Of a DNA stretch of 17,570 nt, positions 1,059 to 17,452 are shown piece by piece. Both the position numbers and the translations under genes were made by a program. The notes under the pieces are model-generated. The model had not been told where the DNA came from and ran no database searches. It worked only from the letters and a program-made list of their open reading frames with translations. Source of the stretch: Cyanobacteria bacterium P01_D01_bin.156 (GTDB taxonomy: Bacteria > Cyanobacteriota > Cyanobacteriia > Phormidesmidales > Phormidesmidaceae); assembly GCA_039024555.1 (NCBI GenBank), contig JBCCQQ010000094.1:1-17570 (forward strand), given 5' to 3'. Position 1 is the first letter of the stretch. Every line of letters starts with the position of its first letter.

Positions 1059-1895
1059 CTATCCTTGCCAATGGACAATGCGTGAGGAAATGATTCTGAG
1101 TAAGAAGTCAGACACTACGCCAAAAAATCCAATCATGAGAATGCCAACAAACAGACCTTCTACATTAAAAAATGTGCTGGCATCCTGAATGATATAACCA
1201 ATGCCCAGATCGCCTGCCAACAATTCCGCGGCCACTAAAATTCCAAAGTCTACGGATAGGGCCACTCGCATACCGGTAAAAATGCTTGGCAGGGCCGCTG
1301 GCAAAATCACATATAAAAAGATGGCTAGATCGTTAGCCCCTAATGTTCGCGCGGCCAGAATCTTATCCTTCGGGCAAGATTGTACACCAGCCATGGTGTT
1401 TAGCATCACGATTAAGGCCCCAGCATAAAGAATGATTAATACTTTGGAGACTTCACCAATGCCAAACCAGAGGATAAACAGGGTGATAAATGCTAGTGGA
1501 GGAATCGGGCGCAACAGCTCGGTAACAATGTAAAAGGCTGCCCGGACATACTTGTAGTAGCCCATAAGCAACCCGAGGAGAAGCCCCACCATGGTACCGA
1601 TGGTAAAGGCGGTAAAGACCCGTCGAAGACTTCCCAGAACATGGCTTATCAGGGGAGTTCCGGCATAGCCTTTTTGAGTCATGGCCAAGAACTCGGTAAC
1701 AATGCCTGATAAACTGGGGAGAAACAGTTCGTCAACCCAACCCATGCGGGTGGTGAGTTCCCAAAGGATGAGAATTAGGGCAGGAATTGCGATCGCAACG
1801 CAAAACAATATCCCTTTTTCTCGCAATGCCTGGGTTTGGAGATCTTGTCCCTTAAACTTAGGCATACTGTCGGATTTCGACATTTTTAACTGCAT
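1059..1895 (-). CDS. ABC transporter permease, TauC/SsuC (NitT/TauT) family
   Basis: Hydrophobic 278-aa ORF with RPIPPLA...LWFGIGE and EAA-type loop AARTLGA...VILPAALPSIFTGMR; last gene of an SBP-ATPase-permease operon. Confidence 0.92.
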   Translation of the reverse strand: MQLKMSKSDSMPKFKGQDLQTQALREKGILFCVAIAIPALILILWELTTRMGWVDELFLPSLSGIVTEFLAMTQKGYAGTPLISHVLGSLRRVFTAFTIGTMVGLLLGLLMGYYKYVRAAFYIVTELLRPIPPLAFITLFILWFGIGEVSKVLIILYAGALIVMLNTMAGVQSCPKDKILAARTLGANDLAIFLYVILPAALPSIFTGMRVALSVDFGILVAAELLAGDLGIGYIIQDASTFFNVEGLFVGILMIGFFGVVSDFLLRIISSRIVHWQG

Positions 1896-1943
1896 CAGGC
1901 TACTATCCCCTACTCACCAATCATGATCGTCCGGTGGGCCGTG

Positions 1944-2762
1944 CTACTCAATGGCCTTCATTTTTAGATATAGGTCTGTTCGATACTGGTTAAAAGCATC
2001 TGATACTCGATTCATCGCCGTATACCGAGGCTCTGGCAAATGAATCCTAATATCGTGGGCAATGCCTCCCAGGTTGCGATCCAAAATGATAATGCGATCG
2101 CTTAAAAACACCGCTTCCTCAATACTGTGGGTAACAAACAGAATCGCCCCTGCCACCTGTTCATGGAGCTTTAACAATTCCTCCTGTAATCCCTCACGGG
2201 TTTGAACATCAACGGCAGCAAAGGGTTCATCCATTAGCAAAATCTCTGGCTGCACCACCATAGACCGTGCCACAGCGACTCGCTGCCGCATTCCCCCTGA
2301 GAGCTGATACGGATATTTTCGTTCGTTGCCCCGTAACCCCACTAAACCAATAATGGTCTCCACCCGCTTCCGTTTCTCATATTTAGAAATGGATTGAAAT
2401 CGAAACCCAAAACCAATGTTCTGTTCGACGGTCATCCAATCAAACAGAGCATTGCTTTGAAAGACCACGCCGCGTCGAGCAGAAGGTCCTTTAATCTCTT
2501 CCCCTCCATGGGTAACGGTACCTAAGAGGGGCTTATAGAATCCGGCAATCAGATTTAGAATAGTGGACTTGCCGCATCCAGAAGGTCCCAACAACGTCAA
2601 AAATTCCCCCTGTCGGATTTTTAGATCTAAATCCTGAAGAACTAGACGTTTACGGCTGTAGCCGAAGGAAACATCATCTAGGGAGATAATCTCAGCCAGA
2701 GAATTCTCTGGCTGAGTATGACGTTCCAATGAATCAACGGATTGAACAGGAGATTGGGACAT
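1944..2762 (-). CDS. ABC transporter ATP-binding subunit, TauB/SsuB family
   Basis: GPSGCGKST, RGVVFQ, YPYQLSGGMRQR, LLMDEPF, FVTHSIEEAVFLSDR. Confidence 0.95.
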   Translation of the reverse strand: MSQSPVQSVDSLERHTQPENSLAEIISLDDVSFGYSRKRLVLQDLDLKIRQGEFLTLLGPSGCGKSTILNLIAGFYKPLLGTVTHGGEEIKGPSARRGVVFQSNALFDWMTVEQNIGFGFRFQSISKYEKRKRVETIIGLVGLRGNERKYPYQLSGGMRQRVAVARSMVVQPEILLMDEPFAAVDVQTREGLQEELLKLHEQVAGAILFVTHSIEEAVFLSDRIIILDRNLGGIAHDIRIHLPEPRYTAMNRVSDAFNQYRTDLYLKMKAIE

Positions 2763-2779
2763 GGAGCAACAACTAGCGA

Positions 2780-3883
2780 CTACTTCGACTCAAGATATTC
2801 CGCTACATAGGAAGAATTAATTAGCGGTGCTAAGTCTTCTGGGACGCTATCCAAACGGCCTTGGTCAACTAGGAATGTGCCGTATTGCTCATAGGCTTTG
2901 TACAGAGCAGTGTTCTGGGGTTGTCCCGGTGCACCGAGCCAGTCATCCGAGAGCTGATCCTCCATTGCCACCACAGTTGAGCCTTGACGACCTACCATAG
3001 CGCCAAACTCTTCTGGAGTAAGGTTTAGACGCTCAGCCTCCCACTTTTGGCCAGATTTAGGATCGGCCAAATAGTCTTTCTGAGCCATATCCCAAGCTTC
3101 CATAAACTTGGTCATCACCTCAGGATTTTCTTCAGCAAACTCTTTGCGCACGGCCCATAGGGCTACGGCATAGGCACCAATGGATTTGGCTGTTGCAATA
3201 TCTTTTCCGCCTAGCTCATTGAGCTTACCTGCGGCAGGTTCCCAGGTCCAAGCCGCGTCAATTTTGCCTGCGGAGAATGCCGCTGCCATTTCTGATGGCT
3301 TGAGGTTAACTAAGTTGACATCACTTTGCGCAATCCCCGCCTGATCGATGGCTGCCAGTAAAGAATGGTGCCCAGAGGTACCGATGGTCACTCCGATAGT
3401 CTTACCCTGCAAACTAGCCACATCTGGGGCCGCATCCCCGGCAATTAAACGCTCCGCTGTTAAAGGTGCATGGTCCAACAGAACCACCTCAATATCGATG
3501 CCTGTGGCAAACGCTGTTAATGAGGGGAAGGGGAAGAACCAAGTGATATCCACCTCATCCGCTGCCAGGGCGGGCACCATTGCGCCACCGGATGAATAGG
3601 GGGCTAGCTCGACATCTAAACCAACTTTCTCAAAATATCCTTCCTTTGCGGCCACCATGGTGATGTTGTTGATGTCACCAGTTTGGAAGCCCACCCGCAC
3701 TTTAGGTAAATCTTTTGCTGGTGCGGCAGCAACTTCGGTAACGGCCTCTGTTGTTTCTTCAACGGCGTCAGAAACCGTTTCTGCAGGCGCACACCCGATG
3801 GCTAAGGCTAGGGAACAAGCGGTTAAACCACTTAATGTAAAAAACTTACGTCGGCTGAAAAAATGCGTAACTGATCGCTGCAT
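2780..3883 (-). CDS. ABC substrate-binding lipoprotein, TauA/SsuA-like, predicted Tat-exported
   Basis: ATG at 3883 preceded by GGAGG (the ORF-track TTG at 3895 overlaps this RBS). N-terminal SRRKFF twin-arginine motif and LAIGC lipobox; SsuA/TauA-like motifs (LQGKTIGVTIGTSGH, GKIDAAWTWEP). Confidence 0.88.
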   Translation of the reverse strand: MQRSVTHFFSRRKFFTLSGLTACSLALAIGCAPAETVSDAVEETTEAVTEVAAAPAKDLPKVRVGFQTGDINNITMVAAKEGYFEKVGLDVELAPYSSGGAMVPALAADEVDITWFFPFPSLTAFATGIDIEVVLLDHAPLTAERLIAGDAAPDVASLQGKTIGVTIGTSGHHSLLAAIDQAGIAQSDVNLVNLKPSEMAAAFSAGKIDAAWTWEPAAGKLNELGGKDIATAKSIGAYAVALWAVRKEFAEENPEVMTKFMEAWDMAQKDYLADPKSGQKWEAERLNLTPEEFGAMVGRQGSTVVAMEDQLSDDWLGAPGQPQNTALYKAYEQYGTFLVDQGRLDSVPEDLAPLINSSYVAEYLESK

Positions 3884-3973
3884 GATTGCCTCCAATCCCT
3901 ACAAATGCCGATATGTGTTAGTGGCGATACCTCGCACGTTAGGAAGTACTTTGACAGCTGCAGAGATTTGGAT

Positions 3974-3989
3974 TGTATCTTCTAGCACA
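3974..3989. promoter_or_regulatory. Putative NtcA box (one mismatch) in the divergent SBP/amidase promoter region
   Basis: TGTA-TCTTCTAG-CACA versus consensus tGTA-N8-TACa. On the minus strand it reads GTG-N8-TAC, with a weak -10-like CAAAGT 21 nt downstream, toward the SBP gene. Confidence 0.5.
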
Positions 3990-4015
3990 AACCTGCTTTT
4001 ACGGTGGCATCTATC

Positions 4016-4046
4016 GATAACTAAAATCTATGGACCCATAAAAAAT
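4016..4046. promoter_or_regulatory. Putative LysR-type operator (copy A)
   Basis: ATA-N9-TAT (T-N11-A) at 4017-4031, within GATAActaAAATCTATGGA; shared with 5829-5847. Confidence 0.55.
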
Positions 4047-4289
4047 ATCTTCTCAAGCCATCGGAGTCCTTAAGATTCTTAGGCTACTGTTAAACTATTG
4101 TCCCTCGTCCGATGCGTACGCGATGAATTGACGATGAGACCCCATAAATCAGAAGCCGAATCATTGTCGATTACTGGGCAGAGCAAAGAGTAGATGCTTA
4201 GGTTGATTTTTACGCTATAGCTAGGCTAGGCCAAGAAGCTTTGAAACAGAACTATGCCGAAGATAAACTAGTCCCTGGAAGAAAACATA

Positions 4290-5690
4290 ATGGCGAAGCA
4301 GCTAGATATTTCCCTAACGATTTCTTCTCTTAATCAGCAGTATGCCCAAGGAACACTGACTCCCGTACAGGTGGTTAAAGCAATTCTCACAGCCCTAGAA
4401 GAACGTGGAGATGATGGCATTTGGATCTATACAACATCTGAAGCCGCATTAATTGAGCGGGCTACGATGCTGACAACTATGTCAGCTAGTCAGCGATCGC
4501 AACTGCCGCTATGGGGTATTCCCTTTAGCATTAAAGACTGTATCGATGTGGCAGGGCAGCCCACATCTGCTGGATGTCCCGGCTTTAGCCATACTGCTGA
4601 ACATACGAATCCAGCAGTGCAAAAGCTGTTAGATGCAGGGGCCATCCTCATTGGTAAAACCAATCTAGACCAGTTTGCAACAGGGCTGGTGGGGGTGCGC
4701 ACCGGTTATCGAATACCCCACAATGCGTTTTCAGCGGACTATATTTCAGGCGGGTCTAGTTCCGGTGCGGCCCTTTCCGTTGCTAATGGTCTGGTTTCCT
4801 TTGCCATTGGTACCGATACCGGGGGGTCGGGGCGAGTCCCCGCAGGGTATAACAACATTGTGGGGCTAAAACCCACGAAAGGATTGTTGAGCACCCGCCA
4901 CATGGTTGCGGCCTGTCGTACCCTAGACTGTCTTTCCGTTTTTGCCCTGACGGCAACGGATACTGAGCATGTTTTTAAGGTAGCCCAAGAATTTGATGAT
5001 GAGAATCCCTACTCTCGTTCAGGGCAGAATTCTCCTGTAAAGACCTACGAACCCAAACACCCGTTTCGCTTTGGTGTTCCCCGGGCCGATCAGCGGGCAT
5101 TCTTTGGGAATGCCGATGTTAAAGCCCAGTATGAAGACGCTGTCAAAACCCTTACTCAGTCGGGGGGAACCTGTATTGACATTGACTATGAGCCCTTTTT
5201 AGAAACCAATAATTTGTTATTTAACGGCCCTTGGGTCGCCGAGCGTTATGTCTCGGTGGGTGATTTTGTCGAAACAGATCCGGAGTCAGTCTTTCCAGTT
5301 GTCCGTGAGATTATTCTGAAGTCTAAACAGCTAACAGCTGTTGCCACATTTAAGGGACTGTATGCACTAGAACAACTAAAACGCACGATTCAACCCCTTT
5401 GGGATGATATTGATTGTTTAGTGGTGCCAACAACCGGAACCACCTATCGCCTCGATGAGATTGCGTCAGCTCCGATAAAGCGCAACAGCGATATGGGATA
5501 TTACACTAATTTTGTTAATTTGTTAGATTTGTGTGCGATCGCAGTCCCTAACGGTTTTCAATCTAACGGTATTCCCACAGGCATCACATTCATCGCCCCT
5601 CCCTATGGGGAACATTATTTAGTCGGATTGGGAGATGCCTTTCACCGCACTAAGACTGAGAAACTGGGAGCCACAGCATTTGATGTGTGA
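4290..5690 (+). CDS. atzF: Allophanate hydrolase-like amidase (AtzF family), amidase domain only
   Basis: Amidase signature: IKD (catalytic Lys), GKTNLDQFATGLVG, SGGSSSG, GTDTGGSGRVPA (cis-Ser/Ser). AtzF-typical GPWVAER and MGYYTNFVNLLDL are present. The protein ends at KLGAT, with no C-terminal domain. The symbol reflects family only; the substrate may differ. Confidence 0.8.
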   Translation: MAKQLDISLTISSLNQQYAQGTLTPVQVVKAILTALEERGDDGIWIYTTSEAALIERATMLTTMSASQRSQLPLWGIPFSIKDCIDVAGQPTSAGCPGFSHTAEHTNPAVQKLLDAGAILIGKTNLDQFATGLVGVRTGYRIPHNAFSADYISGGSSSGAALSVANGLVSFAIGTDTGGSGRVPAGYNNIVGLKPTKGLLSTRHMVAACRTLDCLSVFALTATDTEHVFKVAQEFDDENPYSRSGQNSPVKTYEPKHPFRFGVPRADQRAFFGNADVKAQYEDAVKTLTQSGGTCIDIDYEPFLETNNLLFNGPWVAERYVSVGDFVETDPESVFPVVREIILKSKQLTAVATFKGLYALEQLKRTIQPLWDDIDCLVVPTTGTTYRLDEIASAPIKRNSDMGYYTNFVNLLDLCAIAVPNGFQSNGIPTGITFIAPPYGEHYLVGLGDAFHRTKTEKLGATAFDV

Positions 5691-5828
5691 GACATTTAGT
5701 TCAATTGATGTAACATCTTAAACTTCTCTCTTTTCTTTTGCCTTCAACCTCTGTAAAGGTTAATCTCTATCTTTTTTACTTTATGTGGGTAATCTATATC
5801 CATTAGTCACGTGTGCGCGTTAGTAATG

Positions 5829-5859
5829 GATAAAGGAAATCTATGGATCTAATCAAAAT
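5829..5859. promoter_or_regulatory. Putative LysR-type operator (copy B)
   Basis: ATA-N9-TAT at 5830-5844, within GATAAaggAAATCTATGGA; 16 of 19 bases identical to copy A. Confidence 0.55.
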
Positions 5860-5892
5860 TCTTATCGAATCAGAGGGTTGATAAAAAGCATC

Positions 5893-5908
5893 TGTAAATA
5901 GAGATACA
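5893..5908. promoter_or_regulatory. NtcA box upstream of the second ABC operon
   Basis: Perfect TGTA-AATAGAGA-TACA, 57 nt before the ATG at 5965. No clean TAN3T at the canonical distance (TTAAAT at N23). Confidence 0.7.
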
Positions 5909-5964: not shown

Positions 5965-7533
5965 ATGAATTCTACTTACGCTCGATTCAAAAGATTTTCT
6001 CTTCCAGGTGTTTTAGCCCTCTCTGCTGCTATTGTTGCATCATGTTCAGGCCCTTCTGGTACTGAATCGGCAGATTCTACGTCTTCTGGTGGCAGTGGTG
6101 AAGTGATCCGTATTTCTATCGGAACACAAGACCAGGTAATCAATACGGCTGTTGGCGGTGCCACCGTACGCGAACTGGGCTTACTGGAAAAACATTTGCC
6201 GACAACGGGTAAATATGAGGGTGTTGAATATGATATTCAATGGTCTAGCTACACATCGGGACCGCCAATCACCAACAAAATGTTAGCCAATCAGATCGAT
6301 ATTGGCTTAATGGGTGATTTCCCAGCAGTTATTAATTTGATCAAGTTCCAAGAGGAAGTAGAAGGCGTTACGTCTACATTTATTGGCACCCTAGCCTACA
6401 GCCCCAATGGAGCCGGTAATGCGGTAGTGGTTCCCAAGGATAGCGATGCCACCTCTTTAGCCGATCTAAAGGGAGGTTCTGTATCGGTACCCTTCGGTTC
6501 TGCGGCCCACGGCATGGTCTTAAAGGCATTAAGTGATGCTGGAATTGATCCAGAAAAAGATGTCAAGCTGATTAGTCAGGCTCCTGAGGTTGGCGGCACC
6601 AGTTTGCGTACTGGCCAAATCGATGCCCACGCTGACTTTGTTCCCTTTGGTGAACTTTTTCCCTTCCGAGGCTTTGCTAAAAAGATCTTTGACGGTGCCC
6701 AAACAGGCGTGCCCACATTACACGGTATTGTTGTTCGTTCTGATTTTGCAGAAGAGCATCCAGAGATTGTTCAAGCCTATCTCCAGGCAATGCTGGAAGC
6801 AAATCAGACATTCCAGGAAAGTCCTGAAGAAATTTCAGCCCAAATCGAGGAGTGGTCGGGCATCGAGAAAGAAGTGGTCTATATGTTCCTTGGCCCTTCT
6901 GGTTTACAACCCATTAACCCCAGTATTGGTGAAGTCCAGCTAGAGGCCCTAAAAAATAGTATTGCCACGCTAATTAGCCTGGGTAAAATTGAGTCCCCGG
7001 TTAATCCTGAAGATGTTACCGGATGGGTCGATGAAAGCTTCTTGAAAACAGCCATGGATAACCTGGGCCTGAACTATGACGAAGTAATCGAAACCGGTGA
7101 AACCTACGTGATTACGGGGAATGACGCTCTAACGAATGAACCCATTGAAGAGCCCAAGATGGCGGCTCAGCTGTGGATTCAAGAAGAGCCCACAGTGACT
7201 AACTTTGCCACCATTCCCAATATGATCAAAAAGCTCAATGAGCTACAGGCTGATGGAAAAGCCTCTGATGTGATCTTTGTTCACGATCGCAACAAAGGCT
7301 GGAAGCTCTTTGCTGAAAATTCTCACTACGTTAAAAATGGAGATGAGATCTCGGCCTTTTTGTTAGAGTCTGATGCTAAGGCGTTTGCGGCTGAATCTGG
7401 TGGCGAGGTAACCACCTTTAAGAGTTTGCTGCAGACCTACGCCAATGGACCTCAGCCAGCTCGCATTAGCCGGTTAACAATGGAGGATTTAAGACAGGCA
7501 ATGTTGGATGCAGTCCCTGCACTAGCCGGTTAA
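5965..7533 (+). CDS. ABC substrate-binding lipoprotein (NitT/TauT, AsfC-like) with a C-terminal NosL-like extension
   Basis: Lipobox IVASC followed by a Ser/Gly linker; SBP motifs SGPPITNKMLANQIDIGLMGDFP, VPFGSAAHG and HPEIVQAYL; ~140 extra C-terminal residues; first gene of an SBP-permease-ATPase operon. Confidence 0.9.
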   Translation: MNSTYARFKRFSLPGVLALSAAIVASCSGPSGTESADSTSSGGSGEVIRISIGTQDQVINTAVGGATVRELGLLEKHLPTTGKYEGVEYDIQWSSYTSGPPITNKMLANQIDIGLMGDFPAVINLIKFQEEVEGVTSTFIGTLAYSPNGAGNAVVVPKDSDATSLADLKGGSVSVPFGSAAHGMVLKALSDAGIDPEKDVKLISQAPEVGGTSLRTGQIDAHADFVPFGELFPFRGFAKKIFDGAQTGVPTLHGIVVRSDFAEEHPEIVQAYLQAMLEANQTFQESPEEISAQIEEWSGIEKEVVYMFLGPSGLQPINPSIGEVQLEALKNSIATLISLGKIESPVNPEDVTGWVDESFLKTAMDNLGLNYDEVIETGETYVITGNDALTNEPIEEPKMAAQLWIQEEPTVTNFATIPNMIKKLNELQADGKASDVIFVHDRNKGWKLFAENSHYVKNGDEISAFLLESDAKAFAAESGGEVTTFKSLLQTYANGPQPARISRLTMEDLRQAMLDAVPALAG

Positions 7534-7856: not shown

Positions 7857-8714
7857 ATGGCCAGTACCCTTCCTCAAACTCGGGTTCGGAATCGCAGATC
7901 TAACCCAGCGATATACCAAACACTAAAAGCATTTATTCTGTCAGGTCGTTCTACCAGGCGATTGATCGCTCTGGTACTCTTTTTTGGAATCTGGCAAATT
8001 CTATGCATGATTAGCTTTAAGTTTTTTATTAACTTTCAGCTGATTCCTTCTCCATGGGAAGTTGCTAAAGCGACGGTTGATTTCTTTACCACTGACCCCT
8101 GGGTGCATATTCGCTCTAGCGTCGTTCGAGTATTAGTTGGATTTGCCGTAGCCTCTGTACTAGGAACTATCTTGGGGATCTTGATTGGGTGGTTTCACAT
8201 TGCTGAAGACTTGTTAATGCCATCGTTGGAATTACTGCGCCCGATTCCTGCCGTTGCTTGGATTCCCCTAGCAATTCTCATGTTTCCTAATGCTGAAACA
8301 GGGATGATTTACATCACCTTTATTGGGGCGTTTTTCCCAGTTCTCATCAGTACCATTCGGGCTGTTGAGAATATTCTGCACGATATTGTTTTAATTCGTG
8401 TAGGGCAGTGTTTAGGAGCTAATCAATGGCATGTCTTTAAAGATATTGTTATTCCTGGAGCATTACCCGGTATTGCGGGTGGTTTAACCATTGGTATGGG
8501 CAACGCCTGGTTTTGTTTGGTCACTGCCGAGATTTTGGCAGGGCGCTATGGCGTAGGGTACATAACCTGGGAGTCCTATGTCACATCGAACTATCCTCCC
8601 ATTGTCATGGGCATGTTACTCATTGGCCTGATGGGCGCCATCAGCTCCTGGGCTGTAGGACGGAGTACGGCCGCCTTAATGCCCTGGCGCGTGATTAAGA
8701 AGCAGGATGTTTAA
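7857..8714 (+). CDS. ABC transporter permease, NitT/TauT family
   Basis: LRPIPAVAWIPLAILMF and LGA...FKDIVIPGALPGI motifs; multiple hydrophobic segments. Confidence 0.93.
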   Translation: MASTLPQTRVRNRRSNPAIYQTLKAFILSGRSTRRLIALVLFFGIWQILCMISFKFFINFQLIPSPWEVAKATVDFFTTDPWVHIRSSVVRVLVGFAVASVLGTILGILIGWFHIAEDLLMPSLELLRPIPAVAWIPLAILMFPNAETGMIYITFIGAFFPVLISTIRAVENILHDIVLIRVGQCLGANQWHVFKDIVIPGALPGIAGGLTIGMGNAWFCLVTAEILAGRYGVGYITWESYVTSNYPPIVMGMLLIGLMGAISSWAVGRSTAALMPWRVIKKQDV

Positions 8715-8730
8715 CTAGAGGAATACACCC

Positions 8731-9555
8731 ATGATCCAAGAGACCCTTGCCCCGGCTGCTGTCGAAACAGACCCCAAAGGTGCTGTCAATGTCGAAGGCA
8801 TTTCCATGACCTTTAGCCGACAGGGCCATTCTACTCAGGTGCTCGATTCGATTAACTTACAAATTAAGCCGGGAGAGCTAGTCTGCCTGCTAGGGCCATC
8901 GGGATGTGGTAAATCTACGCTGCTTAATATCATTGCCGGATTTATTAAACCCACCGCTGGTTATGTCATGGTGGATCAAAAACAGGTTACCAAGCCGGGT
9001 GCCGATCGAGGGTTTGTTTTTCAACAATATTCTTTGTTGCCCTGGAAAACAACCTATCAGAATGTTGAATTTGGATTAAAAATTAAAGGCATTCCCAAAG
9101 CAGAACGACAAGATATGGTTGGGGAGTATCTTAACCTCGTGGGGCTTGGTAAGTATCGCAATGCCTATCCCAGCCAGCTTTCCGGAGGCATGCAACAACG
9201 AGCTAGTATTGTTAGAGCATTGGTAAACTCACCTTCGGTACTACTGATGGATGAGCCATTTGCAGCGCTAGATGCTCAAACTCGACATATGATGCAGGAG
9301 CTGCTGTTAAATATTTGGAGTACTCTAAAGACAACCGTTATTTTTGTCACCCATGATATTGAAGAAGCTGTCTTTTTAGGCGATCGCATCTTTGTAATGG
9401 GGGTACAACCAGGCCATATTAAAGCCGAGTTAGATATTCCCTTGGCTAGACCTCGCCATGTGGACGATATGCTAACGCCAGAGTTCACCCAGCTTAATCG
9501 ACAGGTATTTGAATGTATCCGAGAAGAAACCTTAAAGAGTATGGAGCAGCCTTAG
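8731..9555 (+). CDS. ABC transporter ATP-binding subunit, NitT/TauT family
   Basis: GPSGCGKST, YPSQLSGGMQQR, LLMDEPFAALD, FVTHDIEEAVFL; GAGG RBS upstream. Confidence 0.95.
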   Translation: MIQETLAPAAVETDPKGAVNVEGISMTFSRQGHSTQVLDSINLQIKPGELVCLLGPSGCGKSTLLNIIAGFIKPTAGYVMVDQKQVTKPGADRGFVFQQYSLLPWKTTYQNVEFGLKIKGIPKAERQDMVGEYLNLVGLGKYRNAYPSQLSGGMQQRASIVRALVNSPSVLLMDEPFAALDAQTRHMMQELLLNIWSTLKTTVIFVTHDIEEAVFLGDRIFVMGVQPGHIKAELDIPLARPRHVDDMLTPEFTQLNRQVFECIREETLKSMEQP

Positions 9556-9568
9556 GAATATTGTCGTA

Positions 9569-10753
9569 ATGGTTCCCCCCAGCTTGAACGAAAATATTTC
9601 TAATAGAAATCCTTTGGGACGTCTATTGGGTTCAGCTCGGTATCTAAATAAACTTCATGGCATATTTTTTGTGAGTTTATTTAGCCTAGCTGCCTATCAT
9701 CTATCTTCCTTTGAAATTCTGAAGAGCCTTAAAATGAGTCCAGTTATTGTTGGACTTATTCTGGGGGCTTTTTATGCAAACAGTTTTGGCAGAGATTTGC
9801 CCTCCAAATGGGTGCCTGGTATTGTTTTTTGTAAAAATAAAATCCTTAAAATAGCCATTATATTTTATGGTGTAAAGCTAACTTTTCAAGATTTATCTGC
9901 GGTGGGTCTAGCTGGGCTTTTATCTTGTTTTTTTATCGTCATTAGTACCTTTTTTATTGCCTTTTTGCTAGGCAAATATTGTTTTAAGCTAGATCATGAC
10001 CTCTCGATTCTAATTGCTGCAGGAAGCTCTATTTGTGGTTCAGCCGCCATACTAGCGACAAGTTCAATTTTAAAGAGCAAATCCTATAAAAACATTATTG
10101 CTGTCGCGATTACGTTTCTACTTGGCACTTTGGGGATGTTGCTGTTCCCTCTGGTTTACAGGCTGGGATGGTTTCAGGTGAATGAAACTATATTTGGCGT
10201 TTTTCTGGGTATTACCCTGCCATCTGTCGGCAATGTAGCCGCAGCAGGAGCGGCTGTTTCTGAGGTAACCGTGCAAAGTGCCATCATTGTAAAGATGATT
10301 CGGGTCATGATGCTAGTTCCTTTTTTGTTGCTTTTGGGACTATACAGGTCAAGAGGGGACGCTTCTGATTCAGGAGATGCATCAATCCGTGGCAAAGGCT
10401 CGTCAGTATCTTTGCCAGAAAGCCATACCGGAGTGCAGTACCGTCCCAGAAACTATATGGGGGTAATCTCTGGGACGCCGACTATTCAACAAAAGAGTAA
10501 AGCTATTGTTCCTTGGTTTGCTATTTTTTTTATAGGTGCGATCGCAATAAATTCACTGTTACAACCGCCCCTTGGAGTTGTTAACTTCATTAACCATGTC
10601 GACAAATTCTGTTTGACCATGGCAATGACGGCTCTGGGTATTGAAACAAGCGCCCATAAAATTCAGGGAGTCGGTCTTAACCTGATTTACCTAGGTCTTG
10701 TGGTGTCGGCTTGGCTAATTGTTGCTGGCTTACTCATCACTTATTTTATATAG
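9569..10753 (+). CDS. YeiH/UPF0324 (PSE, putative sulfate exporter) family membrane protein
   Basis: Family motifs ILKIAIIFYG, LIAAGSSICGSAAI, IVKMIRVMML, VPWF and LTMAMTALG; about 10 hydrophobic segments. Confidence 0.85.
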   Translation: MVPPSLNENISNRNPLGRLLGSARYLNKLHGIFFVSLFSLAAYHLSSFEILKSLKMSPVIVGLILGAFYANSFGRDLPSKWVPGIVFCKNKILKIAIIFYGVKLTFQDLSAVGLAGLLSCFFIVISTFFIAFLLGKYCFKLDHDLSILIAAGSSICGSAAILATSSILKSKSYKNIIAVAITFLLGTLGMLLFPLVYRLGWFQVNETIFGVFLGITLPSVGNVAAAGAAVSEVTVQSAIIVKMIRVMMLVPFLLLLGLYRSRGDASDSGDASIRGKGSSVSLPESHTGVQYRPRNYMGVISGTPTIQQKSKAIVPWFAIFFIGAIAINSLLQPPLGVVNFINHVDKFCLTMAMTALGIETSAHKIQGVGLNLIYLGLVVSAWLIVAGLLITYFI

Positions 10754-10766
10754 CCCCTGGCATCAG

Positions 10767-12827
10767 CTAGAAGGACTTGATAGCCGTTTCCAAAAACTCT
10801 GTCTGTATCCAGTTATTTGTATCAATATTTCCTAGTTCCTCGTTGCCTGGAATGATTTGGAGTTGTTTAATATGCTCCGTAATCCAGTCAGTTTTAATTT
10901 GCGTTGCTGGGAAAAACAAACCAGTGTGATTAGGTTGCTGGTAATCAAGGGTCTTTGCCACAATTTCAGGAGCTAGACTAACCCAGTTACTAACCAAGGA
11001 AAGCGCGCTAGGTGTGGTTACATACCAATGTTGAGCTGCAATTAAGGCTTTAAGGTAAGCAACGACAATTTCAGGATGGTCGTCTATTAAAGCTTTTCTG
11101 GCTACAATGCCATGAAATGTTGGTAGGCCCGTCATATCAGGAGTATCCACCAAACGACGAAACTTACCACGGTGGCTGGCAATTTCATGGAGAGGGGCAA
11201 AATAGGCATAGCCGTCCGCCTCGGCATTTTGCGGAGTGAGCCGATTAATGCTCAGGTTATTGATCGAAGTAAGCGTTACATCCTGCAACAGATTTGCTTG
11301 GGACAAAGTACGCATCACCATCCCGTGAGCTGATGAAGCAAAGGGAACGGCAATAACGCGATGACGTAAATCATCCAAACTGCTTAGGGGTGACCGACCA
11401 GGAACAATAATGGTATTACCTGTACCATCTGGATTGCTGGCAACAAAGCTAACTAATCGGGTTTTGGTTAAGGATTCATTTTCCGGAGAAATACCACTTA
11501 ACAACAAGGGATAATCCCCTAAGATGCCAATATCTAATTCTTGAGATTGCAAACCTGCTACGATGGGAGCCCCTGATGTAAAATCTCTCCATTTAATTCT
11601 ATAGTCAATGTTGCTGTATTGCCCATCCCGAGGGAGAAAATGCTCCAATAGCCCTAAGCGTTGAATAATGCTCCCAGCGGTCACTGTTTGGATTGTTTTA
11701 TTTTGGGTGCCAATGGCCAGGGTTATGGTTTCAGTCAGCGTTTTAGAACGTTGAATAGCAATGCCCGGAGATCTTAAATGAACCTTCCTAGCATCCTTAG
11801 CAAAAGGTGATGGAAAAGAACTTGCAGATATTCCATCAGAGTATTTTGTCGTTGTTGAGCTTGGTTTTCGGAGACGTCGTCTACGCTCAGATTCCCTAGA
11901 AACAAGCTGAATAAACTGCTGTACCGGTTCAACAGATATTGTTTTAGCCCCGCGTTTTTGAGATTGCCGATGGAGCATCTTGGAAAGTTGCTTTGGCATC
12001 AGCATAAATAATTGATAGTCAAAGGCAAATTCCTGCAATGGAATTTCGACTAGCAATTTGGTTTGGCGCTCTGTTATTAGCTGCATGCTTGAGCCAAACC
12101 CTAAATAATGGCCCTGGGTTAAGAATGTATTCAATAATCCAGCTGTGTGAACGACTTCCTGGTGAGGAAAGTCAGAGATTTGCATTCCCAGTTCGGATAG
12201 TCGTCCCTCCAATGCCAGACGCTCAGAGGTGCCGGTGGCTGGGAATACCCAAAATTCTGATTTAAGCTCCTGCAAACTAAGCCATTTACAATGAGCCAAA
12301 CGATGGTCAGCGGCCACCATTAGAAAATATTGAAAGCTGCCAACAGGAGATGAGGTAATCTCGTTAAAATCACTAAGATTTGTTTCAGAAAACCCAATTT
12401 CTACATCACCTATGGTGATTGCTTGATGTAGCTGCTGAACCGTATCAAATGGCAAGCATTCTAACTGGATATTGGGATATTCCTGACGATATCTAAATAA
12501 AAGATGGGGTAGCCATCCACGGGCAATACTGTGGGTACAGCCAATCTTTAGATGGCTAAATTTTCCCTGTTTTATTTCGTTGATTTTATTGAGTAAATGG
12601 CTTTCTAAAGCGATAAGTTTTGGCCCTTCTTCTAACAAGTAATCGCCCACAGGCGTTAGTTCTATTTTGCGCCCAAGCCGATAGAAAAGCTCCGTGTCTA
12701 GGCTAGCTTCCAGTGCCTTTATCTTCGCACTCACCGCAGGCTGGGTCAGATTTAGCACATCTGCCGCTTCTGTAAAACTCAGGTGGCGAGCCACCTCTAG
12801 AAAAACTTTAAGCTGATAAAACTCCAC
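10767..12827 (-). CDS. LysR-family regulator fused to a C-terminal ABC substrate-binding-like domain
   Basis: LysR HTH (EFYQLKVFLEVARHLSFTEAADVLNLTQPAVSAKIKALE...LFYR), LysR effector domain, a basic/Ser-rich linker, then ~320 aa homologous to the SBP at 5965. GTG at 12827 gives a typical LysR N-terminus; the ORF-track ATG at 12875 is an alternative start. Confidence 0.88.
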   Translation of the reverse strand: MEFYQLKVFLEVARHLSFTEAADVLNLTQPAVSAKIKALEASLDTELFYRLGRKIELTPVGDYLLEEGPKLIALESHLLNKINEIKQGKFSHLKIGCTHSIARGWLPHLLFRYRQEYPNIQLECLPFDTVQQLHQAITIGDVEIGFSETNLSDFNEITSSPVGSFQYFLMVAADHRLAHCKWLSLQELKSEFWVFPATGTSERLALEGRLSELGMQISDFPHQEVVHTAGLLNTFLTQGHYLGFGSSMQLITERQTKLLVEIPLQEFAFDYQLFMLMPKQLSKMLHRQSQKRGAKTISVEPVQQFIQLVSRESERRRRLRKPSSTTTKYSDGISASSFPSPFAKDARKVHLRSPGIAIQRSKTLTETITLAIGTQNKTIQTVTAGSIIQRLGLLEHFLPRDGQYSNIDYRIKWRDFTSGAPIVAGLQSQELDIGILGDYPLLLSGISPENESLTKTRLVSFVASNPDGTGNTIIVPGRSPLSSLDDLRHRVIAVPFASSAHGMVMRTLSQANLLQDVTLTSINNLSINRLTPQNAEADGYAYFAPLHEIASHRGKFRRLVDTPDMTGLPTFHGIVARKALIDDHPEIVVAYLKALIAAQHWYVTTPSALSLVSNWVSLAPEIVAKTLDYQQPNHTGLFFPATQIKTDWITEHIKQLQIIPGNEELGNIDTNNWIQTEFLETAIKSF

Positions 12828-13006
12828 AGTAAAATGCCTACCCAGCCATTTAATAATTGGTGATTTCTTAACCATGTTCTGAGTAATAAGTACTCAGTTT
12901 ATAATTTTTAAAAAATTGTATTAGCCAAACCCTTGCCTAAGGCTTAATTGTCAGTATTACTTAACCAATTAGAATTTCTTTTTTCTTGGTATTCACATTT
13001 TTTATG

Positions 13007-13049
13007 AGTATATAAAATAAATGAATCCAAAAACTGTACCCCTCGATAC
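13007..13049 (-). promoter_or_regulatory. NtcA-activated (class II-type) promoter for the LysR-SBP gene
   Basis: Minus strand reads GTA-TCGAGGGG-TAC (13049-13036), N23, TATACT (13012-13007), matching GTA-N8-TAC-N22/23-TAN3T. Confidence 0.7.
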
Positions 13050-13164
13050 TAAAAGTCTTGAGCCAATCACTGACTCTCTTTAAGATAGTGACAGCAGGAA
13101 AAAAGGTTGAGGCTGTAATTTTGTTGACTAGGGCTATACTCTCTTTTGAAATTTTGGGCCAAGT

Positions 13165-13179
13165 ATAAGTTTTTGATAG
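13165..13179. promoter_or_regulatory. Possible LysR-type operator upstream of the flavoprotein operon
   Basis: ATA-AGTTTTTGA-TAG (T-N11-A) in the divergent lysR/flavoprotein intergenic region. Weaker match than copies A and B, in AT-rich context. Confidence 0.35.
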
Positions 13180-13296
13180 CAACTGCCTCTTTAAGGTTTT
13201 AAATTCGATTCAAACTTCAAAGATGTTAAGTCCTGCTGTGTTGTCAGCTTTTTTTCGGTCAGGTTTGATTACCCAAGTAGACGTGAGGGATTGTGC

Positions 13297-15000
13297 GTGA
13301 AGACTCAGCATCTGCAAACAGATTTTTTAGTGATTGGTGGTGGCACCGCTGGTACGATGGCAGGCATCAAAGCCAAGCAGGCTAATCCAGATGCCGATGT
13401 TTTGATTTTGGAGAAAGCGAATATTCGTCGCAGTGGCGCGATCGCAATGGGTATGGATGGCGTTAACACCGCTGTTATTCCCGGTAACTCTACACCTGAG
13501 CAGTACGTGAGAGAGATTACTATTGCCAACGACGGTATTCTAAACCAGAAGGCGGTCTATCAAACCGGTCGCTGGGGTTTTGAGGTAATTCAAGAGCTAG
13601 AGAGTTGGGGTGTAAAATTCCAAAAAGACAACGAAGGGAATTACGACCTAAAGCAGGTGCACCGAGTGGGTAAATATGTGTTACCCATGCCTGAAGGAAA
13701 AGACCTCAAGAAGATTCTTTCTCGTCAGGTAAAACGCCATAAAGTGCGGGTCACTAATCGAGTTATGGCCACTCGGGTCATGGTTAAAGAAGGTCGCGTG
13801 ATCGGAGCCGTTGGTTTTGATGTGCGGAAGGGAGACTTTGTTGTTATCCAAGCCAAGGCCGTTGTTCTGTGTACTGGAGCCTGTGGACGTCTTGGATTGC
13901 CTGCCTCGGGTTATCTCTATGGTACCTATGAGAATCCCACGAATGCTGGCGATGGTTACTCCATGGCTTACCACGCTGGGGCAGAACTTACCAACATTGA
14001 ATGTTTTCAGATTAATCCCCTCATTAAGGATTACAACGGTCCTGCTTGCGCCTATGTGGCCAGTCCCTTTGGGGCCTACACCGCTAATGCGGAAGGTAAT
14101 CGCTTTATTAGCTGCGATTACTGGAGTGGCCAGATGATGCTGGAAACTTGGAAAGAGTTGAACTCAGGTAAGGGGCCAGTACATCTTAAGATGTATCACC
14201 TGGATGATGATACCATTTCCGAAATTGAACGAGTCTTATGGGCCAACGAGCGTCCTAGTCGAGAGCGTTTCCACGAGGGACGAGGAGAGAACTACCGTAC
14301 CCACGGCGTGGAGATGAACATCTCCGAAATTGGTCTGTGTAGTGGTCACAGTGCCTCGGGTGTTTGGGTCAATGAAAAAGCAGAAACAACTGTGCCAGGT
14401 CTTTATGCGGCTGGAGACATGGCCAGTGTGCCCCACAACTATATGATTGGGGCATTTGTTTCCGGGCGTTTATCCGGCATCAATGCTATGGATTATGTGA
14501 AAGGGCTGGGGCACGTAGAGCCAGACCCTGAGTTTTTAGCAGCGGAAAAAGCTCGGATTTACGCACCGTTAGATCGTCCCGATGGCATTCCCCACACCCA
14601 GGTGGAATATAAGCTACGGCGATACGTCAATGATTATCTGCAGCCACCCAAGTCTCCCACTAAGATGGACATTGGTCTGGCCTACTTTGAAAAGTACTAT
14701 CAGACCCTAGATTTAATGGGAGCTAGGGATCCCCACGAACTGATGCGCTGTATGGAAGTCCACTTTATTCGCGACTGTGCCGAAATGGCGGCACGGGCCT
14801 CTTTATACCGAAAGGAGAGCCGCTGGGGACTGTATCACTATCGACTAGATTATCCTGAGAAGAATGATACGGAATGGTTCTGCCATGCCAACTTAAGGAA
14901 GACAGAGGCCGGAGAGATGGAAATGTTTAAGCGTCCTGTAGCTCCGTATATTGTAGAAGTAGATCTGCAACAGGAAGTTTACGATGTCGCTGTAAGGTAA
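13297..15000 (+). CDS. FAD-dependent oxidoreductase, APS reductase alpha-like (AprA/AsfA-type; SDH/FRD flavoprotein superfamily)
   Basis: VIGGGTAG FAD fold; EKANIRRSGAIAMGMDGVN resembles the AprA N-terminal motif (xKAxxxRSGAVAQG); TTVPGLYAAGD; RKESRWGLYHYRLDYP. Lacks the SdhA/FrdA RSH covalent-FAD motif. GTG at 13297 follows a GAGGGA RBS (the ORF track uses TTG 13291). Confidence 0.85.
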   Translation: MKTQHLQTDFLVIGGGTAGTMAGIKAKQANPDADVLILEKANIRRSGAIAMGMDGVNTAVIPGNSTPEQYVREITIANDGILNQKAVYQTGRWGFEVIQELESWGVKFQKDNEGNYDLKQVHRVGKYVLPMPEGKDLKKILSRQVKRHKVRVTNRVMATRVMVKEGRVIGAVGFDVRKGDFVVIQAKAVVLCTGACGRLGLPASGYLYGTYENPTNAGDGYSMAYHAGAELTNIECFQINPLIKDYNGPACAYVASPFGAYTANAEGNRFISCDYWSGQMMLETWKELNSGKGPVHLKMYHLDDDTISEIERVLWANERPSRERFHEGRGENYRTHGVEMNISEIGLCSGHSASGVWVNEKAETTVPGLYAAGDMASVPHNYMIGAFVSGRLSGINAMDYVKGLGHVEPDPEFLAAEKARIYAPLDRPDGIPHTQVEYKLRRYVNDYLQPPKSPTKMDIGLAYFEKYYQTLDLMGARDPHELMRCMEVHFIRDCAEMAARASLYRKESRWGLYHYRLDYPEKNDTEWFCHANLRKTEAGEMEMFKRPVAPYIVEVDLQQEVYDVAVR

Positions 15001-15139: not shown

Positions 15140-15367
15140 ATGGCTTTAACAACCCAGCGTGTAGACGTTCCCGTCATTGTCGACGAATCTAAATGTCTCG
15201 AAAAATGTGTCGCTTGCATTGAAGTGTGTCCTCTGGATGTCTTGGTGAAAAATCCAGAAACCGGTAAAGCCTACATGAAATATGACGAGTGTTGGTTCTG
15301 TCTCCCCTGTGAGAAGGAATGCCCCACCAATGCCATCACCGTTCAGATTCCATTTCTGTTGCGTTAG
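15140..15367 (+). CDS. 2x[4Fe-4S] ferredoxin, AprB/AsfB-like partner subunit
   Basis: CLEKCVACIEVCP and ECWFCLPCEKECP; the Trp in ECW matches the AprB-type motif; 75 aa, directly downstream of the flavoprotein. Confidence 0.9.
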   Translation: MALTTQRVDVPVIVDESKCLEKCVACIEVCPLDVLVKNPETGKAYMKYDECWFCLPCEKECPTNAITVQIPFLLR

Positions 15368-15381
15368 GGAGACTATTTACC

Positions 15382-16362
15382 ATGGCTAATGCTGAACTGG
15401 ATCCAGAGGTAGTGCAATGGGTAGAAATGTTGGGCTCGGAGGATCTTGGCGATCGTCTTGTGGCGGCCAAAGCCCTGCAACATTTGGGTGACGAGGATGC
15501 TATCGATGCGCTGATGCAGAGTTTAAATGACACAAGCGCTAGGGTTCAAGAGATTGCTGTTACAGCCCTATGGGAAATGGCTAATCCGGTAGTGGTGCCT
15601 GCCCTGTTGGACTGTCTGAGTTCTAACCATGAGCCAGATGTGCGCACAGAAGCTCTGTCGGCGCTCAAAGAACTGGTCTCCCCTGATGACTTACTGAAGC
15701 TGTTGGATGCGATCCAAGTGGATGACGAGAATATGCAGCTGAATGTGTTAGTTCTGCTGCGAAAAATCCACGATGCCCAGGCATTGCCCTATGTGATGCC
15801 TTTCTTTGAATCGGGAAATCCCACCCTGCGAGAAGCCTCTATTGTTACCCTGCGATATCTAAACCAGGTGGTGCGGTGTGAACCAGCGTTGGCTTTAGCT
15901 AAGGATACTAACGACGATGTGCGACGTTCGGCAATTTTGACCCTGGGCTACCTAAGCGATGAGCAAGTGGTACCGATGCTGTGCGATGCGATCGCAAACG
16001 ATTCCGATTGGCAGGTGCGCCGTAATGCAGCTCAATCCTTGGATTTACATGCCACTGAAGCAGCGATTCCAGCCCTGACCCAAGCCATGGGAGATGACCA
16101 CTGGCAGGTGCGCAAGTTTACGGCCCGTGCGTTGCAAAAGGTAGCTAATGATGAAACTATCCCCAACCTAATCAAGGCCCTCTCCGATGAATATTCGGAT
16201 GTGCGACGGGATGCGGCCATTGCCCTAGGCAATCTAGGTAATCCCGAGGTGCTACCGGCCTTACAACAAACCCTAGATGACCCGGATAGGGACGTTCAAA
16301 TCTTTTCCCAGCGCGCCATTCAAAAAATTCAGGATCAGCTGACAGAGACCTCTAATGCCTAA
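15382..16362 (+). CDS. HEAT-repeat (PBS lyase HEAT-like) protein
   Basis: About 10 repeats of the L.D.D..VR..AA.ALG pattern (DSDWQVRRNAAQSL, DDHWQVRKFTARAL, DEYSDVRRDAAIALG). ATG 15382 follows GGGAG; the ORF-track start at 15319 overlaps the ferredoxin. Confidence 0.9.
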   Translation: MANAELDPEVVQWVEMLGSEDLGDRLVAAKALQHLGDEDAIDALMQSLNDTSARVQEIAVTALWEMANPVVVPALLDCLSSNHEPDVRTEALSALKELVSPDDLLKLLDAIQVDDENMQLNVLVLLRKIHDAQALPYVMPFFESGNPTLREASIVTLRYLNQVVRCEPALALAKDTNDDVRRSAILTLGYLSDEQVVPMLCDAIANDSDWQVRRNAAQSLDLHATEAAIPALTQAMGDDHWQVRKFTARALQKVANDETIPNLIKALSDEYSDVRRDAAIALGNLGNPEVLPALQQTLDDPDRDVQIFSQRAIQKIQDQLTETSNA

Positions 16363-17452
16363 CCACAATTCCCCGTTTGGTCGTAGTAGCATACCGGCTG
16401 CTGAGACAGTGCCTGAAAACCCCATTGTTGCCGCGCGTAAACAGGCTGCTATTTATTGCTTAAAACAAGTAATAGAGCCCACCCTTGACAACAATATTGT
16501 GGATTTGGGGATGGTGCGCAACCTACGGATAGTAGACAATTACGTCTACTTAAGGCTGTATGTGGGCTCTCATCAACGGGCTCTAAAGGACCAGGCCCAG
16601 TTAACCCTAGGGGATTTAGACTGGTGCCAAAAAGCCTATATACAGGTTTGCACCATTCCCGGAGTACGCACTACCTTGGCGGTCTCTAGCGGTAAAGGCG
16701 GGGTGGGAAAATCCACCACCGCTGTAAACTTAGCCGCTGCCCTGACAAAAACGGGGGCAAAAGTGGGGATATTGGATGCAGATATCTACGGCCCTAATGT
16801 GCCCCAGATGTTGGGGTTATCTCAAACCGCTGTTGAGGTAATCGATACCCCAGAGGGGCAACGGTTTAAGCCCATGGAGGCCCATGGCATAAAAGTAATG
16901 TCGGTGGGGTTACTCGCAGAGGCCGATCATCCATTAGCGTGGCGCGGCCCCGTACTCCATAAAGTGATTACCCAGTTTATTCAGGATGTGGACTGGGGAG
17001 AGCTGGATTATCTCTTAATTGATTTACCGCCAGGTACGGGAGATGCCCAAATTACGATTATCCAAGAGAGTCCTATTTGTGGTGTGGTCATGGTAACAAC
17101 GCCACAGCAGGTAGCGGTTTCCGATGTGCGGCGCAGCATTTACATGTTTCGCCAGGTAGGGGTGCCGGTACTGGGGCTGGTGGAAAATATGAGCTATTTG
17201 ATCTGTAGCTGTTGTGGAGAGCGCACCTCCATTTTTGGTAGTGGGGGCGGAGAACAAATGATGGCAGAACTGAAGGTGCCTCTGCTAGGGCAGGTGCCGA
17301 TTGATCCGCAGATTTGTCAGAGAGGCGATACAGGTCAGCCGTTACCTTTAGCAGATGCACAGGCTCCTTTATCAAAGGTGTTTGAGGCCATTGCCATAGG
17401 GTTGAATAGCACTTTTTTACCAGTGTTATCTCAATCGGTACTTTCCCTGTAA
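16355..17452 (+). CDS. mrp: Mrp/ApbC/NBP35 family Fe-S cluster carrier ATPase with an N-terminal DUF59-like domain
   Basis: SGKGGVGKST, DADIYGP, WRGP, DLPPGTGD, VTTPQ and ENMSYLICSCC (CxxC). Overlaps the HEAT gene end by 8 nt, suggesting translational coupling. Confidence 0.92.
   Translation: MPNHNSPFGRSSIPAAETVPENPIVAARKQAAIYCLKQVIEPTLDNNIVDLGMVRNLRIVDNYVYLRLYVGSHQRALKDQAQLTLGDLDWCQKAYIQVCTIPGVRTTLAVSSGKGGVGKSTTAVNLAAALTKTGAKVGILDADIYGPNVPQMLGLSQTAVEVIDTPEGQRFKPMEAHGIKVMSVGLLAEADHPLAWRGPVLHKVITQFIQDVDWGELDYLLIDLPPGTGDAQITIIQESPICGVVMVTTPQQVAVSDVRRSIYMFRQVGVPVLGLVENMSYLICSCCGERTSIFGSGGGEQMMAELKVPLLGQVPIDPQICQRGDTGQPLPLADAQAPLSKVFEAIAIGLNSTFLPVLSQSVLSL

Follow-up and report, generated by a model that had tools for sequence, protein, structure and literature searches.

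LysR-type transcriptional regulators (LTTRs) are usually proteins of about 300 amino acids (aa) with two domains, an N-terminal winged helix-turn-helix (HTH) domain and a two-lobed effector-binding domain. Periplasmic-binding-protein folds serve as ligand sensors in several transcription factors, such as SgrR, LacI/GalR and, in the form of the effector domain, LysR itself. SgrR (family 5) and LacI/GalR (type I) each carry a single sensor domain, which belongs to another class of substrate-binding proteins (SBPs) than the one considered here. In E. coli, CysB and Cbl control the sulfonate operons ssu and tau. The C-terminal domains of the cyanobacterial transporter ATPases NrtC and CmpC are cytoplasmic paralogues of the SBP of the transporter, to which they are about 30% identical; they are described as reporting the intracellular level of a small anion and gating transport allosterically (PMC13287603, PMC10945777). 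In the NasS-NasT system, NasS is an NrtA-like, SBP-derived cytoplasmic sensor of the transported anion, which controls assimilation genes as a separate protein that frees an RNA-binding antiterminator (PMC3795266). Here we analyzed contig JBCCQQ010000094.1 of Cyanobacteria bacterium P01_D01_bin.156, a cyanobacterium with a genome of 6.6 Mb; the entire contig of 17,570 bp is referred to as the window. A gene at 10767..12827 on its minus strand encodes a fusion protein, which is an intact LysR-type regulator with a cytoplasmic duplicate of an importer SBP as an extra C-terminal domain.

The fusion regulator shares with canonical LTTRs the N-terminal winged HTH, the two-lobed effector domain and the location of its gene divergent from a presumed target operon with an interrupted palindrome in between. 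Unlike them, it is about twice as long, with a variable linker of 60-80 residues and a third, transporter-derived domain. SgrR and LacI/GalR differ from it in that the fusion contains a full LysR effector domain plus a SsuA/TauA-class paralogue of the SBP of the adjacent importer. With the SsuA and TauA binding proteins the added domain has in common the predicted type II two-lobed fold (Foldseek, phmmer), but it lacks a signal peptide and a lipobox and scores below the cut-off of the SsuA family. Its likeness to the NrtC and CmpC domains extends to the phylum, the NitT/TauT-type SBP superfamily and the degree of identity to the transporter's SBP (33% here); there, the domain is located on an ATPase and acts on transport, whereas here it is located on a LysR regulator and would act on transcription. 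Likewise, sensor and LysR regulator are here parts of one covalent chain, whereas NasS is a separate protein. By functional analogy with CysB and Cbl, the fusion regulator is likely tied to sulfur or sulfonate acquisition. SBP-fold sensors in regulators are known. Neither a complete LysR to which a SsuA/TauA-class domain is added nor any LysR with a SsuA/NMT1-type domain was described in the papers reached, with subscription journals outside this coverage; an earlier note on this stretch, made from the letters alone, had likewise named no characterised LysR of this architecture.

The longest open reading frame (ORF) of the fusion gene, 10767-12875 on the minus strand, comprises 702 open codons with an ATG at 12875 and a stop at 10767-10769. 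The start of the homologues corresponds to residue 17, a GTG at 12827 (gap fraction 0.77 over residues 1-20, M17 nearly invariant), which agrees with the gene end given in the earlier note and yields a protein of 686 aa instead of the 702 aa of the longest ORF. The note's outline of a complete LysR followed by a linker and a C-terminal part of about 320 aa resembling the SBP encoded at 5965 was borne out throughout. The LysR-type winged HTH (residues 21-77, 12645..12815, minus strand) scored 75 bits with Pfam HTH_1 (PF00126, cut-off 26.6), and the canonical LysR effector-binding domain (residues 105-296, 11988..12563, minus strand) scored 88.2 bits with LysR_substrate (PF03466, cut-off 28). 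The variable linker (residues 301-380, 11736..11975, minus strand) has no hydrophobic segment; its residues 316-336 form a single conserved helix, and residues 341-361 are disordered. The third domain, by which the usual LysR size is exceeded, comprises 322 aa (residues 381-702, 10770..11735, minus strand) and is the cytoplasmic SsuA/TauA-like binding-protein domain, a paralogue of the neighboring SBP. It is internal, behind the N-terminal HTH. Pfam NMT1_2 matched residues 419-621 with 28.6 bits (cut-off 24.7), and among the NCBIfam models the taurine and aliphatic-sulfonate binding proteins were nearest, although the scores of 67.9 and 65.2 bits did not reach the respective cut-offs.

In its own genome, the fused domain has its closest paralogue in the neighboring SBP (5965-7533). 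In a BLASTP comparison, residues 382-702 of the fusion aligned with SBP residues 46-367 (33% identity, 55% positives, E 2e-55), and all eight motif pairs quoted in the note lie within this alignment. The alignment begins past the signal peptide and lipobox of the SBP (residues 1-27) and stops before its C-terminal tail, so that the fused copy has neither the signal peptide nor the NosL-like tail, as had been stated.

HTH_1 and LysR_substrate were found in all 120 near-length homologues listed, which are 50-89% identical to the protein of the window at a query coverage of 93-98%, with the exception of the lower-coverage P0022, P0054 and P0065. Among the matches listed, the named sources are cyanobacteria without exception and include Synechococcus sp. 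PCC 7335 as well as strains of Leptolyngbya and Nodosilinea, the database names are generic only, and some of the genes are located on contigs of 1.5-5.5 Mb. An alignment of 118 of these sequences (640-800 aa, end to end; the shorter P0022 and P0065 were left out) gave identities to the protein of the window of 0.75-0.87 for the HTH, about 0.55 for the canonical effector domain, 0.09-0.28 with gaps for the linker (301-380) and about 0.67 for the SBP-like domain. The added domain is therefore more constrained than the canonical effector domain. A search with the C-domain, from which the best 150 representatives were considered, revealed further fused proteins with identities as low as about 30%. 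HTH_1 is present in ten of its 11 LysR fusions of more than 600 aa, the other (P0124) being without an N-terminus, and those carrying names again came from cyanobacteria, including a Cyanobium clade. No free-standing cytoplasmic C-domain was present among these 150 representatives, the short ones being fragments or bearers of a signal peptide. A search among shorter proteins gave 40 matches, of which those aligned reach as far as the linker or SBP domain, where they end. Judged by these alignments, the short relatives do not constitute an unfused family of their own but are fragments or derivatives that arose by truncation; the nearest true two-domain LysRs are at most 35% identical. P0173 is a high-GC frame that was mistranslated.

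The uninterrupted fusion was found in five of 401 sampled cyanobacterial genomes, that is, in the genome of the window and in 4/4 other genomes, and full-length matches of the fused type were present in 43 of 50 metagenome loci. The check on homologues proposed in the note thus showed that the fusion is kept and not split into two genes. A search with P0137 (Cyanobium-type) for a separate fused clade returned the same five of the 401 genomes, and a single-protein search of genome contigs for related loci returned three ordinary LysR genes from unrelated bacteria and nothing else. A few derivatives are broken or shortened. In Waterburya agarophytonicola K14, residues ~302-658 of the orthologue (P0311) are deleted and the last 40 are kept, and in Spirulina sp. 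the copy is split into P0316 and P0122 on one contig. In L042, an in-frame stop in the linker separates ORFs of 336 and 357 aa on a contig with a coverage of 2.7, L077 has a regulator with frame breaks, and in L068 an internal deletion of the flavoprotein described below coincides with a regulator truncated past the linker. Natural breaks of the fusion gene fall in the linker.

The 17 fused domains formed one clade (100/100) in a tree built from 46 SBP domains; this clade was sister to that of the cognate importer SBPs (95/85). Because there is a single fused clade and it is sister to the cognate SBPs, the tree indicates that one duplication of the SBP lineage of the importer and one fusion would account for the added domain. 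The earlier description of the fused domain as a duplicated SBP agrees with this topology. The distances among the fused domains and among the partner SBPs were correlated (r 0.71), a value attained in 0/2000 permutations. The fusion is thus inherited together with the importer SBP, and it is co-inherited with the flavoprotein operon described below as well.

An AlphaFold2 model based on a 75-sequence alignment had a mean predicted local distance difference test value (pLDDT) of 86.3 and a predicted TM-score (pTM) of 0.82, with a pLDDT below 50 at residues 341-361 of the linker. Foldseek matched the N-terminal half best to full-length CcmR/NdhR (5y2v, E 6.7e-22) and the C-terminal half to SsuA (3ksx, TM 0.80) and TauA (6ssy, TM 0.71); no solved chain spans both halves, the best query TM-score being 0.36. 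A phmmer comparison of the fused domain with TauA gave an E-value of 8.8e-15, and TauA and SsuA are the closest solved relatives of both SBP copies. In TauA, the sulfonate is contacted by Gln30 through its side chain and by the backbone of Gly61, Gly79 and Thr132, and the amine by Glu106, Thr132 and Asp205 (PMC6906117). In the HMMER alignment, TauA Gln30, Gly61, Gly79, Thr132, Glu106 and Asp205 correspond to Q391, G435, G453, S515, N487 and H588 of the fused domain; the neighboring SBP has the same mapped residues except for an alanine in place of S515. By this alignment, equivalents of the sulfonate-anchoring residues reported for TauA are thus present in the fused domain (Q391, G435, G453 and S514/S515). 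Within the 118 sequences, Q391, G435, G453, N487, S514, H517 and F559 are found in 118/118 and H588 in 116/118, and conservation within the domain is highest at the positions lining the cleft. The fused domain and the neighboring SBP of the window agree at 12 of 14 cleft positions as against 33% identity overall; in 26 pairs from the same locus, a mean of 9.8 of 14 is shared at 30% overall identity. The pocket degeneration considered in the note was therefore not seen in close relatives, in which the equivalent residues are intact and largely the same as those of the SBP.

Divergent from the regulator, a gene at 13291..15000 on the plus strand encodes a flavoprotein resembling the alpha subunits of adenosine 5′-phosphosulfate (APS) and 3′-phosphoadenosine 5′-phosphosulfate (PAPS) reductases. 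Its best solved relative is the PAPS reductase alpha subunit 8a8o (E 2.7e-69), followed by APS reductases. The formerly uncalled gene at 15140..15367 (plus strand) encodes a 75-aa AprB-like ferredoxin with two [4Fe-4S] clusters, 89-97% identical in 10/10 other loci. It is followed on the plus strand by genes for a HEAT-repeat protein (from 15319, within 15319..17452) and an Mrp/ApbC Fe-S carrier (16355-17452). The longest ORF of the HEAT protein overlaps the ferredoxin ORF; its probable start is the ATG at 15382, because the alignments with homologues begin at about residue 17-28. The flavoprotein gene is divergent from the regulator at a distance of at most 1.2 kb in 46 of the 47 metagenome loci with at least 300 bp upstream of the regulator.

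The flavoprotein is present in 24 of the 401 genomes including that of the window; in 22 others it is 81-87% identical, and one more has a 71% identical fragment. The fused regulator is missing from 19 of the 24. In all six fusion-less genomes examined (L020-L025), a lipoprotein SsuA is encoded directly upstream of the flavoprotein with no LysR adjoining, and 3/3 of the canonical SsuA proteins scanned scored above the TIGR01728 cut-off. In L020, MetY and MetX are encoded inside the operon, between flavoprotein and ferredoxin; L021 has ORFs of the same size in this place, known by size alone. The set of flavoprotein, ferredoxin, HEAT protein and Mrp is linked to an SsuA-type binding protein in the loci examined. 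Because of the placement of SsuA, the TIGR01728 scores and MetY/MetX in the operon, the enzyme set would belong to sulfur assimilation from imported sulfonate-type compounds. The genome of the window encodes no SsuD above the family cut-off (best 30.6 versus 518 bits), and one TauD-family gene is located elsewhere in it.

On the other side of the regulator, the gene at 5965..7533 (plus strand) encodes the importer's lipoprotein SBP, the donor lineage of the fused domain, with a signal peptide containing a lipobox-like VASC, as read from the sequence according to the lipobox rule, and a NosL-like C-terminal tail. This tail (397-490) scored 22.7 bits with NosL, below the cut-off of 24, and relatives of the SBP pass it with 25.1 and 27.4 bits. 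Genes for the importer permease (7857-8714) and for an ATPase of 274 aa with no extra domain (8731-9555) follow on the plus strand, and then, convergent with the regulator, one for a YeiH-family membrane protein (putative sulfate exporter family, 9569..10753, plus strand), which is a variable member of the module. Four distant genomes with regulators 44-52% identical have the same gene order (4/4), in which SBP-NosL, permease and ATPase converge on the regulator and the genes for flavoprotein, HEAT protein and Mrp diverge from it. The metagenome scan comprised 51 loci, of which 50 have a fused-type regulator; because L036 and L048 are duplicate entries of one sequence and L037 and L038 hardly differ, the counts are slightly inflated. 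Importer genes were present in 30 of the 38 metagenome loci with at least 1.5 kb downstream, convergent in 28 and otherwise oriented in two.

Several further features were noted on this side of the locus. An allophanate-hydrolase-like amidase with the amidase domain only, encoded at 4290-5690, adjoins the importer; homologues occur in 8/50 metagenome loci and next to the fusion-less module of L024, and the amidase may contribute an accessory step to the pathway. On the minus strand, 1059-3895 encodes a second importer, which is TauABC-like. The spacer between it and the amidase (3896-4289) contains weak operator-like sites at 4027-4042 (one mismatch) and 4011-4034 (12.3 bits), neither of them significant alone. 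The metagenomic protein P0148 (779 aa) was considered as a ‘Rosetta stone’ joining HEAT and a cytoplasmic SBP and was rejected in view of a hydrophobic segment and a lipobox between the two parts. It consists of HEAT repeats joined to an SBP-NosL protein of the partner clade and represents a fusion that spans the membrane or else a read-through in gene calling; the HEAT and SBP-NosL genes are adjacent in its source organism, too.

The spacer that separates the regulator from the flavoprotein gene contains a long interrupted palindrome at 12985..13032 (strand not assigned; arms 12986-13005 and 13012-13031), whose core TTTAT-N6-ATAAA at 13001-13016 has no other exact match in the window. Conservation of the block extends over five genomes, and with matrices built by leaving out one genome at a time the palindrome ranked first or second among intergenic positions in 5/5 genomes. 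In 46 metagenome spacers, the core was found with no mismatch in 25, one in 14, two in six and three in one; 39/46 thus have at most one mismatch, as against 11% of shuffled spacers. The centre of the core is mostly located 52-90 bp upstream of the regulator start and 181 bp upstream in the window. A divergent operon with a conserved spacer dyad of the T-N11-A type, a trait of LTTRs, is evident from this conservation, and we infer that the palindrome may be the operator of the fusion regulator. A scan of 10600-13400 for sigma-70 promoter and terminator consensus sequences gave four promoter-like sites versus 5.7 expected in shuffles, and no promoter was assigned. An Rfam scan of the whole window with E up to 0.1 gave a spurious miRNA match only and no known riboswitch or leader. 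Among the sequencing runs listed, this DNA occurs in a single DNA metagenome, which may be where the contig came from, and in no RNA run.

Operator-like half-sites were also detected upstream of the importer operon at 5824..5901 (strand not assigned), namely a dyad at 5824-5850 and a site at 5878-5901 (15.2 bits), the latter located 64-87 bp upstream of the start of the SBP. When all 46 bp of the conserved block were modelled with nhmmer from the five genomes, no significant match upstream of the importer was obtained; the signal emerged only with a half-site matrix and controls. With the matrix made without a locus's own site, the 300 bp upstream of the SBP-NosL gene beat 95% of shuffles in 19/21 loci. 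The mean z was 2.71 for the upstream regions of the importer versus -0.17 for 113 other non-coding gaps of the same loci, and p ≤ 0.05 was reached by 86% of the former versus 1% of the latter (Mann-Whitney p 2e-13, the loci being related). With a metagenome-only matrix, the top three of ~35,000 positions in the window were the two arms of the palindrome (22.9 and 17.5 bits) and 5878-5901. An inverted repeat at 5794-5835 upstream of the SBP gene, with 18-nt arms and a 6-nt spacer, has the geometry of the 12986-13031 palindrome.

We consider it reasonably likely that the fusion protein is a ligand-gated activator whose transporter-derived domain would sense an imported sulfonate-type compound and switch the promoters of the importer and of the flavoprotein operon. 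In this model, the imported compound, an organosulfonate or a related sulfo-compound, would bind the two-lobed C-domain and close it. The closure might be relayed to the LysR core through the linker helix or by docking and would change the seating of the LysR oligomer on the palindrome, so that the importer operon and the flavoprotein/ferredoxin/HEAT/Mrp operon would be induced in the presence of intracellular substrate. A second input, for example the sulfur status, may come from the canonical effector domain, as in the control by CysB and Cbl. A more elaborate version is a two-key switch for an undescribed sulfo-compound pathway, in which the C-domain would report the arrival of the substrate and the canonical effector domain the sulfur status; we put this forward as a possible but tentative extension. 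Similarly speculative is its continuation, in which both inputs jointly would turn on the importer and a sulfite-releasing APS-reductase-like enzyme that replaces an SsuD-type monooxygenase.

Several observations weigh against the sensing of an imported sulfonate or limit the evidence for it. The pocket residues were mapped by sequence alignment to TauA and not from a liganded structure. With TIGR01728 (SsuA_fam, cut-off 163.5 bits), the fused domain scored 65.2 and the neighboring SBP 127.5 bits. Glu106 and Asp205, reported to bind the amine in TauA, are replaced by asparagine and histidine in both copies (Asn487 and His588 of the fused domain); because of this replacement the ligand is not expected to be taurine-like at its amine end, and a sulfonate-type anion that lacks a cationic amine is probable. 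The signature of the partner SBP is constant in 23/26, and that of the fused domain varies at positions 434, 486, 515, 586 and 588. H588 is replaced by tyrosine in 22 of 48 fused signatures and by serine in one, from more distant lineages, and in the deepest fused clades N487 is gone as well. The stem of the fused clade is long (0.95 substitutions per site) and the evolutionary rate of the fused domain is about 1.5 times that of the partner SBP, both of which would also fit a changed function. In 8/38 loci, no importer gene is present in the available flank, which extends 7.7-9 kb downstream in three of them, and one locus (L072) has no flavoprotein and adjoins a different NitT/TauT transporter. 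The operator was assigned from position and conservation. Since the loci are phylogenetically related, their counts are not independent trials and the statistics overstate independence.

Part of these observations would be expected if the C-domain sensed an intermediate or product of the pathway, such as a cytoplasmic derivative, sulfite or the true substrate of the enzyme, and not the ligand of the SBP. The regulator is tied more closely to the APS-reductase-like operon (46/47 loci) than to the importer (30/38), and the distal pocket drifts in distant fused lineages while that of the partner SBP is fixed; these two observations qualify the earlier reading of a two-input sensor of the imported ligand, which is partly supported, and together with the long stem branch they speak for another ligand. 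We nevertheless regard it as unlikely, since within the subfamily of the window 12/14 pocket positions equal those of the SBP, no variation is seen at the anion-anchoring positions, and operator-like half-sites occur at the importer promoter, too. Quite improbable is a C-domain that binds no ligand and serves for docking or oligomerisation, for example with a HEAT/flavoprotein complex or the cytoplasmic face of the transporter, leaving the canonical effector domain as the sole sensor. The latter is indeed intact and conserved, and such contacts have precedents in the CmpC regulatory domain, which binds nucleotide-binding domains (PMC13287603), and in NasS, which binds NasT (PMC3795266). However, both still bind ligand, the strongest conservation of the fused domain lies in its cleft, and P0148, the sole HEAT-SBP fusion found, does not contain a cytoplasmic SBP, as judged by its hydrophobic segment and lipobox. 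That the fusion is an artefact of assembly or gene calling, or a decaying pseudogene with two separate genes being functional, is extremely improbable and is already refuted as a general explanation. The few broken forms (L042, Spirulina P0316/P0122, L077) would fit it, but they are rare, and one such case coincides with decay of the flavoprotein (L068). The fusion is uninterrupted in 118 sequences, some from multi-Mb contigs, as well as in the 4/4 other genomes and the 43/50 metagenome loci, and both halves are under constraint.

The ligand-gated activator favored here shows how sensing can be matched to import: an SBP was copied, lost its export signal and was attached to a regulator that already had an effector domain. 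Within the same phylum, it would do for transcription what the regulatory domains of NrtC and CmpC do for transport. It also offers an entry to the pathway, as the conserved enzyme set should act on the compound that the fused domain and the SBP bind. As a soluble, self-contained module leading from ligand to DNA, the protein would suit as a starting point for a sulfonate biosensor.

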